Of a stretch of 64,000 nt of DNA, positions 3,283 to 32,962 are shown piece by piece (the stretch's first letter is position 1; each line of letters begins with the position of its first letter). The stretch lies in the NCBI GenBank assembly GCA_003482855.1, contig DMXO01000005.1, positions 227,719 through 291,718 on the forward strand, read 5' to 3'. The notes below the pieces were generated by a model. That model did no database searches, was not told the origin of the DNA, and was given only the letters and a program-made list of their open reading frames with translations. Made by a program: the position numbers and the translations under genes. The DNA comes from Candidatus Magasanikiibacteriota bacterium (lineage in GTDB: Bacteria; Patescibacteriota; Patescibacteriia; Magasanikbacterales; UBA922).

Positions 3283-3349
3283 CACGGCGCTTGAAATTCC
3301 GTCGCTCGCCCTAGATGCAAGTAAACTTGCGCCTGTGGGCTCGCTAGGA
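3283..3349. repeat. short copy of a dispersed GC-rich element family (related to 10934-11105 and 12791-12940)
   Basis: Shares tccgtcgctcgcc..ctag..tgcaagtaaa..gggctcgct with element A (10997-11060). An exact 10-mer tgcaagtaaa is shared. Lies in the 3' UTR between gene 2642-3265 and the bidirectional terminator. Confidence 0.4.
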
Positions 3350-3354
3350 ATTAT

Positions 3355-3698
3355 AAAAAATCCACCCCGTATATTCAGGGTGGTTTTTATATTGGAGTGG
3401 CATCGTTTGGAAGACGGCGGAGTACGATGCTCACTCCGTTTCCGGGTTTGTGTTTGCCGAATCACGCGATCTCCTCGCTGAGGTGGTAGACGTGAATTTG
3501 GCGATGATCGTGCGTTCCCCCGAGGATACCGGTCCACTCGAGGGTGTGCCTGTCCATGAATTCCCTGACCGAGATGGGGTCGTTTGACCTGATCTCGGTT
3601 GAGATTTCGTGGCACGCACCACAACCGCAACACCTTACCCGGAACCTGAGGTGGTAGACAAACCACCCTTTCATGAAACCCTCCGAAGATATTTGCCA
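3355..3698 (-). ncRNA. structured standalone ncRNA (~344 nt), class unresolved; weak RNase P RNA-like features
   Basis: No ORF on the sense strand. GC ~55% against ~35% background. Upstream TTGACA(3732-3727)-15nt-TATAGT(3711-3706) on the - strand, with intrinsic terminator CCACCC..GGGUGG+U6 at 3355-3388. Long-range helix UUCCGGGU/ACCCGGAA (RNA positions 55-62/252-259) and a second helix 80-85/184-189. Local hairpins GGUGGU-UUGUCU-ACCACC and CCGAGAU..AUCUCGG. 3' pseudoknot (loop GCAUCGU pairs ACGAUGC). 14-nt direct repeat GUCUACCACCUCAG x2. The motif ACAAACCCGG resembles RNase P CR-V, but the J3/4 GGAAAG motif is absent. Confidence 0.55.
3362..3388. terminator. bidirectional intrinsic terminator
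   Basis: ccaccc-cgtatattca-gggtgg hairpin flanked by an A6 run (3355-3360) and a T5 run (3384-3388). Ends both the + gene 2642-3265 and the - strand ncRNA. Confidence 0.7.
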
Positions 3699-9165: not shown

Positions 9166-9801
9166 TTATTTTTTTAGTCGTCTTACATACTTCACAATTT
9201 TTTCTAATTCGTTTGAAGCATTTTTTATATAGTTGTCCATTACTTTTTGCATCCTTTGTTTCAGTAGAGAATATTTTTTTTCATTTAGACTGTGTAAGTT
9301 CAAATCGTTTTTGTATAATATATCATGTTCTACTTCTGCCCATGCATGGTTGAGTATCAAGGCAAGCTGTATTTCGCATTCCAAATCTTTAAATTTTTTA
9401 TATTCGCTCAATCTAATTCTTTCATTCCCAAAATTGACAATAATATGAGTGGAACGGTACCCCGTCTTTTTTTCCGTTTCTTGTACAATAATTTTTTTGT
9501 CAAATTCATTTTTTAAACTATAAATGAATCGTTTACGTTCACTATCTGTATAAAATACCACTCGAATTCCAGCAATATCTTTGATGTCTGACAACCGTTT
9601 ATATATTTTGCCTCTCTGTCTTTTAGATTCAATTTTTTCTTTCAAACTATCGATCTCCTTAACCCGACTATTGAGATGATATTTATAATTGCCGGAATGA
9701 AGAATATTTTCAAGTAAAACATGGACAACATTACAGTATTCTGCATATAGGTTTCTTTTGATTCTATATTCAGCTAATATTTTTTTTAGATTTTTGTCCA
9801 T
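9166..9801 (-). CDS. RelA/SpoT-domain small alarmone synthetase (RelQ/RelP-like (p)ppGpp synthetase)
   Basis: 211 aa. Synthetase-domain motifs SRVKEIDSLKEK, DIAGIRVVFY (catalytic Asp), GYRSTHIIV, ECEIQLALILNHAWAEVEHDILYK. Collinear with Bacillus RelQ (YjbM). Confidence 0.75.
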   Translation of the reverse strand: MDKNLKKILAEYRIKRNLYAEYCNVVHVLLENILHSGNYKYHLNSRVKEIDSLKEKIESKRQRGKIYKRLSDIKDIAGIRVVFYTDSERKRFIYSLKNEFDKKIIVQETEKKTGYRSTHIIVNFGNERIRLSEYKKFKDLECEIQLALILNHAWAEVEHDILYKNDLNLHSLNEKKYSLLKQRMQKVMDNYIKNASNELEKIVKYVRRLKK

Positions 9802-10825: not shown

Positions 10826-10933
10826 TTATTTAATACTTTAATAATTGAAGTATATAATCTAATGTATGACTTGTCAATGATAAAATAGAACACCACGGTG
10901 TATAAGAGGTGTGTAACTTTTTGTTTATTTTAT

Positions 10934-11105
10934 GTGATTCGGCTCGCCTGCAAACGCTATGCGTTAGCATTGTGGGCAGGTTGGAAATCTCACGTCGTCG
11001 CCTCGCTCCTCCTGGTGGGGGAACCTTCGGGTTTCCTAGCCTTTCTTCTGCAAGTAAAACCTTACGGTTTCACCATTCCCTCGTTCGCTCCCCAGTTACG
11101 GCCAC
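10934..11105. repeat. GC-rich ~170-bp element A (homolog of element B at 12791-12940)
   Basis: Starts with gtgattcggctcgcc, a degenerate copy of the tRNA-Lys 3' end gtgatccggctgggg. Shares ~70% identity blocks with B (aatctcac, ggaaaccttcgg[g/a]tttccta, gttcg[c/a]tccccagt[t/c]acgg). Contains a GGAACC-UUCG-GGUUUCC hairpin. Confidence 0.55.
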
Positions 11106-11111
11106 AAAAAT

Positions 11112-11140
11112 AAAAAACTCACCATAAAGGTGAATTTTTT
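11112..11140 (-). terminator. intrinsic terminator for - strand gene 11232-12047
   Basis: TCACC-ataaa-GGTGA flanked by A/T runs. On the - strand it is preceded by GGTTCACAA. Confidence 0.55.
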
Positions 11141-11231
11141 ATTTGTGAACCTTATCGGGACAGCTGGCAAACTTTTGTAGTAACTTTGATGACAGAGTTG
11201 CAAGGGGTTGAGTACGATTAAATGTTAATCC

Positions 11232-12047
11232 TTATGGAAAAACAAATTTTAAACTCAAACATTTAAAAAATGGTAATGTTGATATTAGCAAAATTAATAT
11301 TACAAGCGAAACCAAAAAATATAATATAGTTTCTTTTAATGTTTGAATTGTTTTTTCTTTAGGCGCATTCAATAATCTCGGCACAGCTATCAAAAAAAAC
11401 GGTAATACAAAGACCTGTACGACATAAAATGTACACCAAATAGAAGGACTGGCAGTACAAACATCCAGAGAAAATTTAAAATACCCCCACAATACATAAA
11501 TTACACTCAGAATAAACGAAGTATCAAGGGTGGCAAGTAAGTAGGTTATTATTGTCTTTTTTGAAATATCACCTTCAAGTAATTTACGACCTTTTAATGC
11601 ACAGACATGAAAATATATAAATAACAACATCCAAGCTGAAGCCCACACAAAAGCAGAATTATGCTTGAGGTAAAAATTAAATTGTTCAAATGACATTTCA
11701 ATAAAGAATGCGTGCATTGCTACGCCACCAATGATCCACAAGGCGATTTTACTCCTAAGACTTCTATTTAAAATTACTTCTAGCGACCGCAGAAAAAAAT
11801 ACATCGATGAAATTGAAAGTATTAGTCCAATCTTGTAAACAATTTGATTTTGGGTTAATAAAGATAAAAATTCAAATATCTGATGGCCGCCAATAAGTGT
11901 AAAGGCTATAATTACATTTTTTAAAAAAGGTAGTAGCCACTTTTTTTGTATTGTCTGATATTTCATCAAAAACCATATATAATAAAATAAACTAAAGGCT
12001 AAAATTGTAGCACCAGTGGTTAATTGTACTTCTTTGCTATAGCACAT
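11232..12047 (-). CDS. hypothetical polytopic membrane protein
   Basis: 271 aa, about 8 hydrophobic helices. No recognisable catalytic motif. Confidence 0.5.
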   Translation of the reverse strand: MCYSKEVQLTTGATILAFSLFYYIWFLMKYQTIQKKWLLPFLKNVIIAFTLIGGHQIFEFLSLLTQNQIVYKIGLILSISSMYFFLRSLEVILNRSLRSKIALWIIGGVAMHAFFIEMSFEQFNFYLKHNSAFVWASAWMLLFIYFHVCALKGRKLLEGDISKKTIITYLLATLDTSFILSVIYVLWGYFKFSLDVCTASPSIWCTFYVVQVFVLPFFLIAVPRLLNAPKEKTIQTLKETILYFLVSLVILILLISTLPFFKCLSLKFVFP

Positions 12048-12175
12048 ATTATTTTTTAAAAAAGTCTATTAATTATTATACTCTTTTTGTTAACCATTTT
12101 ACAGTTCGAACGCCACCCGATTCTAACAACTTCTAACCATACACCGTCTGGTTCTGGCAAACTCAGATTTTGTCT

Positions 12176-12201
12176 TCGTATAGACAAGAAAACATCCTAT
12201 G
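12176..12201 (-). terminator. intrinsic terminator for - strand gene 12311-12580
   Basis: - strand CATCCTACGCCATAGGATG followed by UUUUCUU, preceded by GTTCACAA. A second hairpin GTCTTcgtataGACAAG follows. Confidence 0.55.
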
Positions 12202-12310
12202 GCGTAGGATGTCTCTAGTTGTGAACAAGGTCGGGACAGGTGGCAAACTTTTGTGGTGGAATTATTACTACAATTGCGAATTACAGATATTTTTGAAACT
12301 TTATTAATAA

Positions 12311-12580
12311 TTAAAGCTTAATTCCAAATTTAGATAAAATAAATATATAGATAGTATAAGCAATAAACATTACAAAAGATGATAGAATCATGGCCCAGCC
12401 AAATTTCATTCCTGTTTTAAGTAAAAATGGTAATATTATAAAAAATAAAAGTGATGGTAAAACCGCCCAAAATATACTCGTGGATAGACCAATTATCTTT
12501 TGGATGTCTTTTGTATCATGATACAGCCAAATAAGAGCCAAAATAGACACCAATGGCAAGGAAGCTATAACTGCTGCCAC
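12311..12580 (-). CDS. hypothetical small membrane protein (3 TM)
   Basis: 89 aa, hydrophobic throughout. Sits inside the repeat/terminator array. Confidence 0.4.
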   Translation of the reverse strand: MAAVIASLPLVSILALIWLYHDTKDIQKIIGLSTSIFWAVLPSLLFFIILPFLLKTGMKFGWAMILSSFVMFIAYTIYIFILSKFGIKL

Positions 12581-12754
12581 CGTGGTAAAACGTTTACTAA
12601 GTTCAGAGACACTAAAAATAATTAAGGCTGAAAGGATTATTTTTTATAATATATTGCATAGATAAAAGTTTAGTTTGGATAGTAAAATTATACGTTATTT
12701 GTACTAAATTAGCAAAATTTCGTTGGCAAACTCCATTTCAGCTTTTAATAGACA

Positions 12755-12790
12755 TAAAAAAACATCCTTTTGACGAGGATGTTTCTTTTT
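12755..12790 (-). terminator. intrinsic terminator (CATCCT-N7-AGGATG with U7 on the - strand) at the distal end of element B
   Basis: On the - strand it is preceded by CCGGATCACAAAAAG, a degenerate tRNA-Lys 3' end. Confidence 0.55.
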
Positions 12791-12940
12791 GTGATCCGGC
12801 TGGGGAATCTCACTGCTCGTCCTCATTTCATTCGGACTGCGCTTTAGGAAACCTTCGGATTTCCTAATATTCTTCCTCGGCATGTAGGGGGATATCTCCC
12901 CCTACCACCCCCTTGTTCGATCCCCAGTCACGGACTACGC
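12791..12940. repeat. GC-rich element B, bounded by an exact 16-nt duplication of the tRNA-Lys 3' end (12791-12806 = 12977-12992)
   Basis: gtgatccggctgggga occurs at 12791 and again inside tRNA-Lys (acceptor 3' strand, T-stem 3' strand and the first C of CCA). The interior is homologous to element A. Contains a perfect hairpin GUAGGGGGA-UAUC-UCCCCCUAC and an AGGAAAUC-CGAA-GGUUUCCU hairpin in - orientation. Confidence 0.6.
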
Positions 12941-12944
12941 AAAC

Positions 12945-12972
12945 TAAAAAACACCCGTCGGGTGTTTTTTAG
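12945..12972. terminator. bidirectional intrinsic terminator immediately downstream of tRNA-Lys
   Basis: A6-CACCC-gtcg-GGGTG-T6. Confidence 0.65.
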
Positions 12973-12977
12973 TTTGG

Positions 12978-13050
12978 TGATCCGGCTGGGGATCGAACCC
13001 AGGACCATCAGCTTAAAAGGCTGTTGCTCTACCAGCTGAGCTACCGGACC
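12978..13050 (-). tRNA. tRNA-Lys (anticodon TTT), CCA encoded (to 12975)
   Basis: - strand GGTCCGG TA GCTC AGCTGGTA GAGC A ACAGC CTTTTAA GCTGA TGGTC CTGGG TTCGATC CCCAG CCGGATC A CCA. G2:U71 wobble and A27:A43 mismatch. Confidence 0.8.
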
Positions 13051-13130
13051 GCATAAACGACCTTCGGTCGTCACGCGGCAAGCCTGCCGCAATTTTTAAT
13101 TTTCAATTTCAAATTTCGAATGATTTTTGA

Positions 13131-21881: not shown

Positions 21882-22199
21882 TCAAGTAAGTTGTTTGCTG
21901 TTTGTTGATGGTTGTTCGTCGCTCCCAGGCTCGGGCCTAGAGTCCCTTGCTCGCTGACTGCTTTTCCATACAAATAGCTTTCCTGGGTTAGATGGATTTG
22001 ATTCCTGTATTTCCCCAAAAATTTGACGTGCGCGCTGTACACCAATTCGTTTGATAACACCAAGATACATTCCAAATTTTTTGCGTTCACCAAAAGCACT
22101 TGATATGACATCAGCCCAATAATGTGCTTCAGAATGAATATGTTTGTTTCGTGGCTTGTCTAGGGTTTTATCACCCAAGATTTTTGATATACCATCCAT
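21882..22199 (-). CDS. hypothetical protein (C-terminal third overlaps a GC-rich repeat-like segment)
   Basis: 105 aa. The N-terminal 65 aa are plausible. The C-terminal low-complexity tail is encoded by the GC-rich segment 21905-21962, which resembles the dispersed element family. Confidence 0.3.
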   Translation of the reverse strand: MDGISKILGDKTLDKPRNKHIHSEAHYWADVISSAFGERKKFGMYLGVIKRIGVQRARQIFGEIQESNPSNPGKLFVWKSSQRARDSRPEPGSDEQPSTNSKQLT

Positions 22200-26126: not shown

Positions 26127-27658
26127 ATTATATGAAAAAAACTTTTTATATCTCAACAGCAATTCCTTATGTTAATGCAAAGCCTCATATAGGTCATGCT
26201 TTGGAGTATGTACAAACAGATGCACTTGCACGTTATCAGCGACTCCTGGGGAAAGATGTTTTCTTTTTGTCAGGCACGGATGAAAATTCTCTCAAAAATG
26301 TGCAAGCTGCCGAAAAAGCTGGTGTGAGTACAAAAAATTTTGTTGATGAACATTATACATTTTTTTATAATTTTAAAGATGCACTCGACATATCATTTGA
26401 TGACTTCATTCGAACTACGGAACAAAGGCATTTTGATGGTGCACAAAAATTGTGGTCTTTATTCAAAAAAGAAGATGTAGAGAAGCGGGCATACAAGGGA
26501 CTGTATTGTGTAGGTTGTGAAGCATTTTACAAAGAAGATGAACTTGTGGATGGCAAATGCCCTGATCACAAGACAGTGCCAGAAGTTGTTGAAGAGGAAA
26601 ATTGGTTTTTTAAACTTTCTCATTATCAAGATGAACTTAAAAAACTTATAGAAAAAGATATCATAAAGATTACACCTGAATTTCGTAAGAATGAATGGCT
26701 TGCTTTTGTTGATCGGGGACTTGAGGATTTTAGCATTTCACGCTCACAAGAGCGTGCACATGGGTGGGGAGTACCAGTACCCAAGGATGAAGGGCAGATT
26801 ATGTATGTGTGGGTAGATGCGCTCTCAAATTATATTACTGCGCTTAATTTCGCAGACGATGGTGAATTGTACAAAAAATATTGGCAAACATGTGAAGATA
26901 GAGTGCATGTCATTGGCAAAGGCATTGGCAAGTTTCATGTTTTGTATTGGCCAGCGATGTTATTGTCAGCAGGTATTCCATTACCGACAGAAGTATTTAT
27001 CCACGGCTATGTGACAGCAGAAGGGGAGAAGATAAGCAAAAGTCTGGGCAATGTGGTAGATCCCTATGAAGTAGTAGAGAAATATGGTACTGACGCTGTA
27101 CGTTATTATTTGCTCGGGGCTATTTCATCTACACAAGATGGTGATTTTTCTGTAGAACGTTTTGAAGAATTTTATACGGCGCATCTCGTGAATGGGGTGG
27201 GGAATTTGACGAGCAGAATTTTGACCATGTTAGAAAAATATAATGAAAGTATAATATCTGTTGTAAACAAAGAGACTTCAGACTTCAGACTTCAGACTTC
27301 AGACTTCTGGAAAAAGATTGAAGAAACACTACAATATTATAATTTTGAAGAATCAATTCATTCAATAAATAATTTTGTTGCGCAACTAGATGGTATTATT
27401 TCTGAACAAAAACCCTGGGAAAAAGCAAAAAATGGTGAAGACATTTCCGGATTGCTGTATCAGCTTGCAGAAGGTTTACGTCATATTGGTTTAGCCCTCT
27501 TGCCAATTATTCCTCAATCCGCAGAAAAGATTTTGAATCAACTTGGTATACAAGTGAGTGATTTGGAAAATTTAGAAATTGAAAGAGAGTGGGGGAGACT
27601 TGAACCTGAAACAAAAGTGAAGAAGGGAGAATTACTTTTTCAAAGATTGAATAAGTAA
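26123..27658 (+). CDS. metG: methionine--tRNA ligase
   Basis: 511 aa. HIGH motif (PHIGH), KMSKS motif (KISKS), anticodon-binding domain. Contains a 5x AGACTTC heptamer array (27273-27307) encoding ETSDFRLQTSDFW. Confidence 0.9.
   Translation: MNYMKKTFYISTAIPYVNAKPHIGHALEYVQTDALARYQRLLGKDVFFLSGTDENSLKNVQAAEKAGVSTKNFVDEHYTFFYNFKDALDISFDDFIRTTEQRHFDGAQKLWSLFKKEDVEKRAYKGLYCVGCEAFYKEDELVDGKCPDHKTVPEVVEEENWFFKLSHYQDELKKLIEKDIIKITPEFRKNEWLAFVDRGLEDFSISRSQERAHGWGVPVPKDEGQIMYVWVDALSNYITALNFADDGELYKKYWQTCEDRVHVIGKGIGKFHVLYWPAMLLSAGIPLPTEVFIHGYVTAEGEKISKSLGNVVDPYEVVEKYGTDAVRYYLLGAISSTQDGDFSVERFEEFYTAHLVNGVGNLTSRILTMLEKYNESIISVVNKETSDFRLQTSDFWKKIEETLQYYNFEESIHSINNFVAQLDGIISEQKPWEKAKNGEDISGLLYQLAEGLRHIGLALLPIIPQSAEKILNQLGIQVSDLENLEIEREWGRLEPETKVKKGELLFQRLNK
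27273..27307. repeat. tandem heptanucleotide repeat (AGACTTC)x5 inside metG
   Basis: Five perfect units, in frame. Confidence 0.75.
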
Positions 27659-32104: not shown

Positions 32105-32962
32105 ATGATTATTGATTCACATTGTCATCTACATTTCGATAGTTTCAAGAGCGATCGCGATCAAGTGATCGCTTCTTGTATTGAACATGGTGTAATCATA
32201 AATACCGTGGGTACTCATAGTGGTACAAGTAAACGCGCAGTCGAGTTGGCAGAAAAAAATGAAAATATGTATGCGACGATAGGACTTCATCCCACACATG
32301 TTTTTCCTATGGAAGTACATGGAGATGAATATGATTTCATTTCAAAAGCAGAGACATTTGACGAAGCATATTATGATACGCTTGCTCAATCAGAAAAAGT
32401 TATTGCAGTAGGGGAATGCGGTATAGATTTGTTTCATCTACCTGAAAATAAAAGTACAGAAGAAGTTTTAGAGAAACAAAAAGAAGTATTTTTGAAACAA
32501 GTAGATTTTGCAAACAAATATAATTTACCTCTTGTTATACATGTACGAGACGCGCATGAACAGCTTATACAAATTCTGAAGTCTGAAGTCCGAAGTCCGA
32601 AGTCCGCCGTGGTCCACTGTTACACATCAAACTGGGGAAATGCTGGAAAATATTTAGATATGGGTTTTTATCTAGGATTTACTGGGGTCATTACATTTCC
32701 ACCAAAAAAAACTGACCCTAAATCTCAAGAAGATCTAATAGAAGTTGTAAAAAAATGTCCTTTGAACAGAATGCTTATCGAAACTGACGCGCCTTATCTA
32801 GCACCTCAGGCATATCGTGGGCAACGTTGTGAACCCTGGATGGTAGAAGATGTAATAAAAAAAATAGCTGAGATTAGAGGAAAAACACTAGACGAAATAA
32901 AAAATATACTATATCAAAATACGTTAAACTTATTCACAAGAATGAAATTAAAAGATAGTTGA
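32105..32962 (+). CDS. tatD: TatD family metal-dependent hydrolase (DNase)
   Basis: 285 aa. IDSHCHL, GECGIDL, HVRDAH and ETDAPYL motifs. Contains a (GAAGTCY)x4-5 heptamer array at 32576-32610, the reverse complement of the metG heptamer. Confidence 0.85.
   Translation: MIIDSHCHLHFDSFKSDRDQVIASCIEHGVIINTVGTHSGTSKRAVELAEKNENMYATIGLHPTHVFPMEVHGDEYDFISKAETFDEAYYDTLAQSEKVIAVGECGIDLFHLPENKSTEEVLEKQKEVFLKQVDFANKYNLPLVIHVRDAHEQLIQILKSEVRSPKSAVVHCYTSNWGNAGKYLDMGFYLGFTGVITFPPKKTDPKSQEDLIEVVKKCPLNRMLIETDAPYLAPQAYRGQRCEPWMVEDVIKKIAEIRGKTLDEIKNILYQNTLNLFTRMKLKDS
32576..32610. repeat. tandem heptanucleotide repeat (CTGAAGT/CCGAAGT)x5 inside tatD; reverse complement of the metG repeat unit
   Basis: Units ctgaagt, ctgaagt, ccgaagt, ccgaagt, ccgccgt. 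RC is GACTTCA/GACTTCG, a circular permutation of AGACTTC. Confidence 0.7.

Follow-up and report, generated by a model that had tools for sequence, protein, structure and literature searches.

Two GC-rich non-coding elements beside a tRNA-Lys gene in a Candidatus Magasanikbacteria genome are most like known relics of integration at tRNA genes. The elements, which we call A and B, lie within a 64,000-nt stretch (the window) of contig DMXO01000005.1, assembly GCA_003482855.1, from a groundwater population of this lineage of the candidate phyla radiation (CPR, or Patescibacteria). Together with two genes they make up a 2.1-kb array in the order A, open reading frame (ORF) 271, ORF89, B, and tRNA-Lys. 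Our favored explanation, to which we give a probability of about 0.45, is that A and B are the element-side remnants of a decayed or miniature unit of ~190 bp, left as DNA was inserted site-specifically, and accreted, at the 3' end of tRNA-Lys. The pair is local and linked to tRNA-Lys, and is neither a genome-wide element family nor a known RNA. We infer that a recombinase, not replication error, built the array, and that the hairpins of A and B have no function of their own today.

An earlier reading of the window from its letters alone (the sequence-only reading) had offered three explanations: att-site remnants, dispersed elements of the miniature inverted-repeat transposable element (MITE) type, or small structured RNAs. 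The first now fits best, because direct copies of the tRNA-Lys 3' end lie downstream of the gene, the junction of terminator and tRNA tail is repeated, and mobile cargo sits between A and B. The second is not supported, and a structured RNA is still conceivable for B.

By alignment, A and B are real homologues. They are colinear, with 61.5% identity over 135 MAFFT columns and blocks at 83-90%, and their local alignment score of 76 lies far above the background obtained from 2,552 window tiles on both strands (99th percentile, 34; maximum, 39). The shared blocks seen in the sequence-only reading are thus genuine. That reading was also right that both elements are GC islands in an AT-rich genome (56% GC in A and 54% in B; window mean, ~36%) and that they lack coding capacity, as A/B indels of 37, 8, 4, and 3 nt rule out a conserved reading frame. 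As proposed earlier, the 37-nt insertion of A (~10940-10980) folds on its own (-14.8 kcal/mol, z -2.6). Homology between the two regions extends across the following terminator and reaches the next tRNA-like tail.

The ends of B are derived from tRNA-Lys. We find that B starts with GTGATCCGGCTGGGGA, the reverse complement (16/16) of the tRNA-Lys 3' end at 12977-12992; the start of A is a 10/11 version of the same tail sequence, and the tRNA-Lys-like starts proposed earlier are therefore present in both. The left-end repeat of B has the same orientation as the tRNA 3' end and lies 170 bp downstream of the intact gene. At the right end, GTTCGATCCCCAG corresponds at 13/13 positions to the T-loop and T-stem of the tRNA in the opposite orientation and is followed by the acceptor-like TCACGGAC. 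When the 28-mer at the tRNA 3' end is compared with the whole window, its best non-self match is the left end of B and its second-best match is the right end. Because the far end of the body holds an inverted copy of the same tRNA segment, the element ends can pair as a tRNA-minihelix-like stem. In B, this stem is imperfect and 15 bp long, reproduces the tRNA-Lys acceptor/T-stem helix, and has three hairpins within it. The right end also forms part of an imperfect palindrome with the terminator and the tRNA (Table 1). The junction of A, terminator, and module E (~11081-11165) shows a weaker form of the same palindrome layout.

The array repeats one junction module. Read on the minus strand, its order is tRNA-Lys, terminator, B, tail, terminator, ORF89, D, terminator, ORF271, E, terminator, A, tail. 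Here D and E are paralogous modules downstream of the two genes, which are themselves unrelated to each other; the sequence-only reading had not mentioned this module pair. D and E are 83% identical, share CGGGACAGSTGGCAAACTTTTGT exactly, and each end in the tRNA-tail-like ..GTTCACAA beside a terminator. The best window-wide matches of the 58-nt junction of terminator and B left end fall exactly at three other junctions, all beyond the 99.99th percentile: 12179 (71% over 58 nt), 11103 (59%, the third-best match), and 12935 (55%, the tRNA itself). The junction also recurs in the repeat families D6, D10, and D11. Five minus-strand tails, those of the tRNA, B left, A left, D, and E, can be aligned from a T-loop-like GTTYG to TCAC.

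Comparison with its homologues indicates that ORF271, the larger cargo gene, is mobile and horizontally transferred. These homologues share 74-84% identity in other CPR lineages (e.g., Kerfeldbacteria) and 49-56% in DPANN archaea; the adjacent P-type ATPase has no relative above 68% identity. The contexts of the homologues are unrelated, lying between ldh and rplA, between radical-SAM and NUDIX genes, and in a Kerfeldbacteria contig (L028, 1-10719) as one cassette of an integron-like array. No sequence is common to the flanks of the homologues and the window. ORF271 is on record in 18-19 contigs, including GCA_001783195.1 MFQX01000009, six of which were aligned across the A/B region and are 100% identical over it.

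The tRNA-Lys locus differs among relatives. In the window, the P-type ATPase gene is divergent from the minus-strand tRNA-Lys(UUU), and six relatives keep tRNA-Lys beside the ATPase without A, B, ORF271, or ORF89 at the locus. Their loci instead carry other insertions, pseudo-tRNA-Lys copies, and small GIY-YIG genes, with the tRNA in both orientations; these differences make the locus a recombination hot spot. The GIY-YIG genes, which encode 74-91 aa, together with the pseudo-tRNAs and the varying orientation, suggest locus turnover driven by homing endonucleases. In the window, tblastn finds no GIY-YIG gene remnants. Truncated or degenerate tRNA-Lys copies with arms replaced by GC-rich hairpins are seen in three related Magasanikbacteria loci (L023, 5523-5911; L011, 9453-9841; L024, 1-412).

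An intact tRNA gene, direct copies of its 3' segment downstream with terminators, and mobile cargo together make the pattern of tRNA 3'-end integration and tandem accretion. In such a process, a circular DNA carrying a tRNA tail and a terminator would recombine site-specifically at the tRNA-Lys 3' end. The incoming DNA would restore the tRNA and displace the previous tail downstream, and repeated integration would accrete units in tandem. In the array here, each unit closes with a tRNA-Lys 3' copy that runs from the T-loop or T-stem to the discriminator, and a terminator of the same family as that of the tRNA comes directly after it. Under accretion, the bodies of A and B would be element-side DNA beside the crossover, from a unit that either entered twice or entered once and was afterwards duplicated together with its flanks. 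Two features looked for in att repeats are found here: downstream of the intact gene lies a repeat in direct orientation that matches the tRNA 3' part at 16/16 positions, with older repeats that are degenerate, and the DNA between the repeats is foreign and variable among relatives.

Tandem accretion of decayed, att-flanked elements, known as cis-mobilizable elements (CIMEs), is documented at tRNA-Lys 3' ends (PMC5704250). The array resembles the CIMEs at the Streptococcus agalactiae tRNA-Lys in its direct tRNA 3' repeats downstream of an intact tRNA-Lys, its tandem units bounded by repeats, the lack of integration genes in these units, and the acquired cargo between repeats (PMC5704250). Unlike those CIMEs, however, the present units are very small, at ~190 bp to 1 kb, with no integrase found within +-10 kb or in ten scanned ORFs at 22-64 kb, and their repeats are coupled to a conserved terminator hairpin. 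Two of the units are also non-coding, GC-rich, and hairpin-rich, and hold an extra inverted copy of the tRNA segment.

Several observations weigh against integration and accretion. No recombinase domain of any kind is detected in the same searches, in which the ten ORFs encode 262-415 aa. An empty site, an excised circle, and a donor element were not found, and neither the tRNA tail nor the B junction turned up in viral-contig scans. Of the five tails, two reach significance individually, those of the tRNA and B left; those of A left, D, and E are at noise level against the tRNA alone, and their support comes from position and mutual homology. Ordinary attL and attR sites have no inverted tRNA-like right end such as that of B, and att arms are usually AT-rich and poor in hairpins, the opposite of A and B. 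Furthermore, both elements have ~55% GC despite ~38% divergence, with symmetric GC/AT differences (23 and 21); this kept GC may point to selection for structure, or else to two acquisitions that were separate and recent. The missing integrase and excision evidence, the weak older tails, the odd inverted right end, and the kept GC hold down our confidence in integration relics.

Local replication errors alone might instead have produced the array, through tandem duplication of a tRNA tail with its terminator, template switching at terminator hairpins that carried the palindromes into the neighboring tRNA tail, insertion of unrelated DNA, and decay. The continuation of A/B homology through the flanking terminators into the next tail, as in a segmental duplicate, is consistent with this, as are the 87-nt palindrome centered on a terminator hairpin, the lack of a nearby recombinase gene, and the partial tRNA-Lys duplications at the same locus in relatives. 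However, replication errors leave unexplained why mobile genes lie precisely between tail copies, why the same junction module occurs at every unit, and where the GC-rich body of A and B came from. We consider this origin unlikely.

Searches for further copies recover A and B only. A covariance model (CM) built from A and B (two sequences) matches these two alone in the window at E<=10 and nothing in 14 related loci, and neither blastn nor the CM detects A/B-like sequence in the six related tRNA-Lys/ATPase loci. The two additional copies proposed by the sequence-only reading do not hold: the "short copy" at 3283-3349 scores 29 against a background 95th percentile of 28, the "possible copy" at 21905-21962 scores 22 against a background mean of 21, and both are missed by blastn and by the CM (E<=10). 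The 10-mer tgcaagtaaa, taken as a link to the short copy, is a chance match, as ~20 exact 10-mer matches are expected for a 172-nt query against 128 kb. A further candidate copy at 12060-12185 was also rejected, being at background level by Smith-Waterman comparison with the window, blastn, and the CM. The supposedly dispersed family therefore comprises two copies, 1.7 kb apart.

Outside the window, the T-loop block was matched once, by chance, in an exact-pattern scan of 185,579 species genomes of the Genome Taxonomy Database (GTDB). A scan of Joint Genome Institute (JGI) metagenomes with the hairpin block, the most conserved, gave the 2-kb contig of the source population, with both copies, and seven chance matches in coding contexts. 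Four viral-contig scans returned nothing real, and BLAST searches of phages and plasmids returned no match. The collection scans detect only sequences that match exactly or nearly so and could overlook diverged relatives, and the source genome is evidently not a GTDB representative.

This distribution bears on whether A and B could be MITE-like, derived from a non-autonomous transposon bounded by terminal inverted repeats. They resemble MITEs in size (~150-170 bp), in their inverted termini (CTGGGGA/TCCCCAG plus flanks), and in being non-coding. However, their copy number is two at one locus, with none in the GTDB, viral, phage, or plasmid collections and, in the metagenome scan, none apart from those on the contig of the same population. 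The apparent terminal inverted repeats are tRNA-Lys sequence, and a check for target-site duplications found none beyond the tRNA-derived repeat: the flanking repeat is the 16-nt tRNA tail, and the flanks hold no short duplication. Because there are two adjacent copies, no such duplication, and no matches elsewhere, MITE-like and dispersed elements are unsupported, and we regard a transposon of this kind as extremely improbable.

The folding of B raises a different possibility, that of a small structured RNA, specific to this lineage and represented by B and perhaps also by A, in which the tRNA-Lys-like acceptor/T-stem minihelix closes a three-hairpin junction. Such an RNA could come from minus-strand readthrough from the tRNA-Lys promoter or from processing of a longer transcript, and could mimic tRNA, for example as a substrate or decoy for enzymes that recognize tRNA ends. 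B folds far beyond shuffled sequences on both strands, with a minimum free energy (MFE) of -55.1 kcal/mol on the plus strand (z -4.8) and -64.7 kcal/mol on the minus strand (z -6.1), and, as tRNAs do, it forms an island of high GC in a genome of 36% GC. The two hairpins that had been predicted in it, one with a C(UUCG)G tetraloop (12845-12866; H2) and one with a perfect 9-bp stem (12884-12905; H3), are both present. H2 is conserved in A (11017-11038). At the H3 position, A has a hairpin of other sequence (11054-11073; -10.6 kcal/mol on the minus strand, p 0.016). GC content is equally maintained in the two elements, and on the plus strand A is preceded by a promoter-like site (10830-10858) and followed by a terminator.

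Nevertheless, other evidence makes a structured RNA doubtful. A keeps four of the seven inner pairs of the closing stem, much of which is lost, and folds no better than shuffles (z -0.9 on the plus strand, -0.65 on the minus strand). Neither strand is favored throughout, since MFE folds favor the minus strand for H2, H3, and the closing stem of B and for the H3 counterpart of A, but the plus strand for H2 of A. The changes in the GGAAAYC/GGUUUCC stem described earlier as partly compensatory are one-sided changes or mismatches. In the MAFFT alignment of the two sequences, no pair is changed on both sides, and the replacement of H3 by a different hairpin at the same place is seen only in a structure-guided manual alignment of A and B. 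B is hemmed in by terminators that abut both of its ends, and a scan of either strand finds no promoter between terminator and B. ARAGORN reports neither a tRNA nor a tmRNA at A or B. In Rfam 15, at the gathering threshold and at E<=10, tRNA-Lys alone scores in the region; nothing overlaps A, and the one sub-threshold match of B (Clostridiales-2; 12848-12918, minus strand) has 19.9 bits against a gathering threshold of 58.6. As noted above, the six related tRNA-Lys loci contain no homologue.

Known tRNA-like minihelices and mimics include the tRNA-like domain of tmRNA, the bacterial Y-RNA-like YrlA, and viral tRNA-like structures. B is similar to these in that its ends pair as an acceptor/T-stem-like helix with a 3' strand identical to tRNA-Lys. 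It differs in having no local T-arm, CCA, or Rfam match, and its paralogue A loses the helix. Two specific RNA assignments were tried and rejected. A tmRNA-like reading of the minus strand of B, in which GGGGAUCGAAC and AUGCCGAGG resemble the 5' part of tmRNA, fails because the motifs are not kept in A, a local T-arm is absent, and tmRNA models are silent. A T-box-like reading, based on the resemblance of GGGUGGUA (minus strand) to a T-box sequence, has the wrong position relative to the terminator, and RF00230 is silent.

The pairing ends of B could also be read as DNA. A and B might be folded single-strand recombination sites, like integron attC or the attP of phage CTX, and so the non-coding cassettes of an integron-like array anchored at tRNA-Lys; their inverted tRNA-like ends would anneal and rebuild a duplex like the tRNA-Lys target. 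The 15-bp imperfect duplex at the ends of B is compatible with this, as are the imperfect palindromes with bulges in the region. The tRNA-like identity at the right end of B begins with GTTCGAT, which matches 6/7 of the integron core GTTRRRY. ORF271 has a genuine cassette counterpart in the attC-bearing Kerfeldbacteria array. The L028 array, with its eight attC-like repeats (..YTAACAGCGCG ... CGCGCGRACGTTRNNY GAAATA), appears to represent an integron-type array on a CPR chromosome.

However, A, B, D, and E on both strands lack RYYYAAC ... GTTRRRY pairs in the required order, with 6/7 partial matches in the wrong order. A gene like that of the integron integrase IntI was likewise not found in the searched range, the window flanks of ORF271 are unlike the L028 attC sites, and the elements that follow the ORFs are D and E, not A and B. 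Both the recombination-site role and the annealing of the ends to mimic the target are, in our judgment, very unlikely. The array is nonetheless like integron cassette arrays in its small single-gene or non-coding units separated by imperfect palindromes, and ORF271 is a cassette in L028. It differs from integrons in lacking the ordered core-site pair, IntI, and attI, and in having a repeated element made of tRNA-derived sequence and a terminator. A 10-mer common to A and one L028 attC, ATTCGGCTCG, was dismissed because it is at chance expectation.

Table 1. Features of the A/B array and the adjoining tRNA-Lys gene (window coordinates)
Feature	Position	Strand	Evidence and remarks
Element A, GC-rich non-coding paralogue of B	10934..11105		Alignments; CM 173 bits; closing stem degraded; extra ~37-nt hairpin segment
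Extra ~37-nt segment of A	10940..10980		Own hairpin; on the minus strand extends the tRNA-like match to T-loop-like GCGTTTG and resembles the D/E module
Bidirectional terminator between A and E	11106..11140		Scan and alignment; homologous to the B/tRNA terminator
Module E, ORF271 3' untranslated region (UTR) element	11140..11181	-	83% to D (background maximum 55%); ends in tRNA-tail-like TCCCGATAAGGTTCACAA beside terminator
ORF271, membrane protein, cargo between A and B	11232..12047	-	No Pfam match; homologues in CPR and DPANN
Terminator adjoining module D	12189..12215	-	Terminator scan
Module D, ORF89 3'-UTR element, paralogue of E	12216..12257	-	83% to E
ORF89, small membrane protein (PF28289), second cargo gene	12311..12580	-	
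Bidirectional terminator abutting B left end	12756..12788		Terminator scan, both strands
Element B, GC-rich non-coding	12791..12940		Folding; CM 176 bits; 15-bp closing stem around three hairpins
B left end, direct copy of tRNA-Lys 3' end (T-stem 3' strand, acceptor 3' strand, discriminator)	12791..12806	-	16/16; 0.08 chance matches expected
Hairpin H2 of B (UAGGAAACC-UUCG-GAUUUCCUA)	12845..12866		Most conserved A/B block, 90% over 20 nt; A counterpart 11017-11038
Hairpin H3 of B, perfect 9 bp	12884..12905		-18.3 (+) and -22.8 (-) kcal/mol
B right end, inverted tRNA-Lys T-loop/T-stem/acceptor copy (GTTCGATCCCCAG TCACGGAC)	12914..12935	+	13/13
Imperfect ~87-nt palindrome: B right end, bidirectional terminator, tRNA-Lys 3' end	12915..12998		85%; self reverse-complement blastn
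Bidirectional intrinsic terminator between B and tRNA-Lys	12944..12972		CTAAAAAACACCCGTCGGGTGTTTTTTAG; center of palindrome
tRNA-Lys(UUU), encoded CCA	12975..13050	-	ARAGORN; Rfam tRNA 68.5 bits; anchors array; T-loop-to-3'-end segment GTTCGATCCCCAGCCGGATCAC

Other features of the window and of related loci were recorded alongside the array. The 5' leader of tRNA-Lys (13053-13095) contains two GC-rich hairpins, ACGACCTTCGGTCGT and GCGGCAAGCCTGCCGC. The motif CCTTCGG has three plus-strand occurrences in the window, all of them within A, B, or this leader. A gene at 9166-9801 (minus strand), ~1.1 kb from A, encodes a 211-aa RelA_SpoT-domain protein of the small alarmone synthetase type. An ArsR-family regulator and two tiny ORFs lie upstream of this gene, and connecting its product with the tRNA-like elements would be purely speculative. 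The strongest GC island of the window (<=60% GC) lies at 3387-3692, between a bPH_2 gene and divIC. It is the stretch that the sequence-only reading had called an ncRNA, and Rfam at E<=1 gives no match; dubious minus-strand ORFs of 171, 84, and 63 aa overlap it, one of which crosses a terminator. Inverted tandem heptamer runs, (GACTTCA)n and its complement, occur at 27274-27306 and 32572-32604; they are 91% complementary and 5.3 kb apart.

Two observations come from relatives. In one (L025, 3820-4150), a possible ncRNA lies downstream of tRNA-Lys: ~270 nt of GC-rich, non-coding sequence with a strong terminator behind it, for which Rfam gives no match at E<=0.05 and which is unlike anything in the window. 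In another (L024, 4364-4440), a DUF3800-II RNA (RF02961, 49.3 bits) lies beside a DUF3800 gene.

What the pair means for the CPR depends on how it arose. There is a small chance that A and B are a functional mobile non-coding cassette of ~150 nt in which the paired ends re-create the acceptor/T-stem duplex of tRNA-Lys. This cassette could act as RNA, mimicking a tRNA end, or as folded single-stranded DNA (attC- or CTX-like), and would mark an undescribed tRNA-anchored, integron-like CPR system. Such a system would exchange genes like ORF271 with DPANN archaea and with integron arrays of the classical kind. Should A and B prove to be active as a recombination site or RNA that mimics tRNA, CPR gene flow would be tied to a new tRNA-anchored cassette mechanism. 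If A and B are instead relics of insertion at tRNA-Lys, as we favor, GC-rich islands of AT-rich genomes need not be RNA genes, a point that is useful for annotation and unsurprising. The tRNA-Lys gene of an ultra-small CPR genome would then be a landing pad for horizontally moving single genes.

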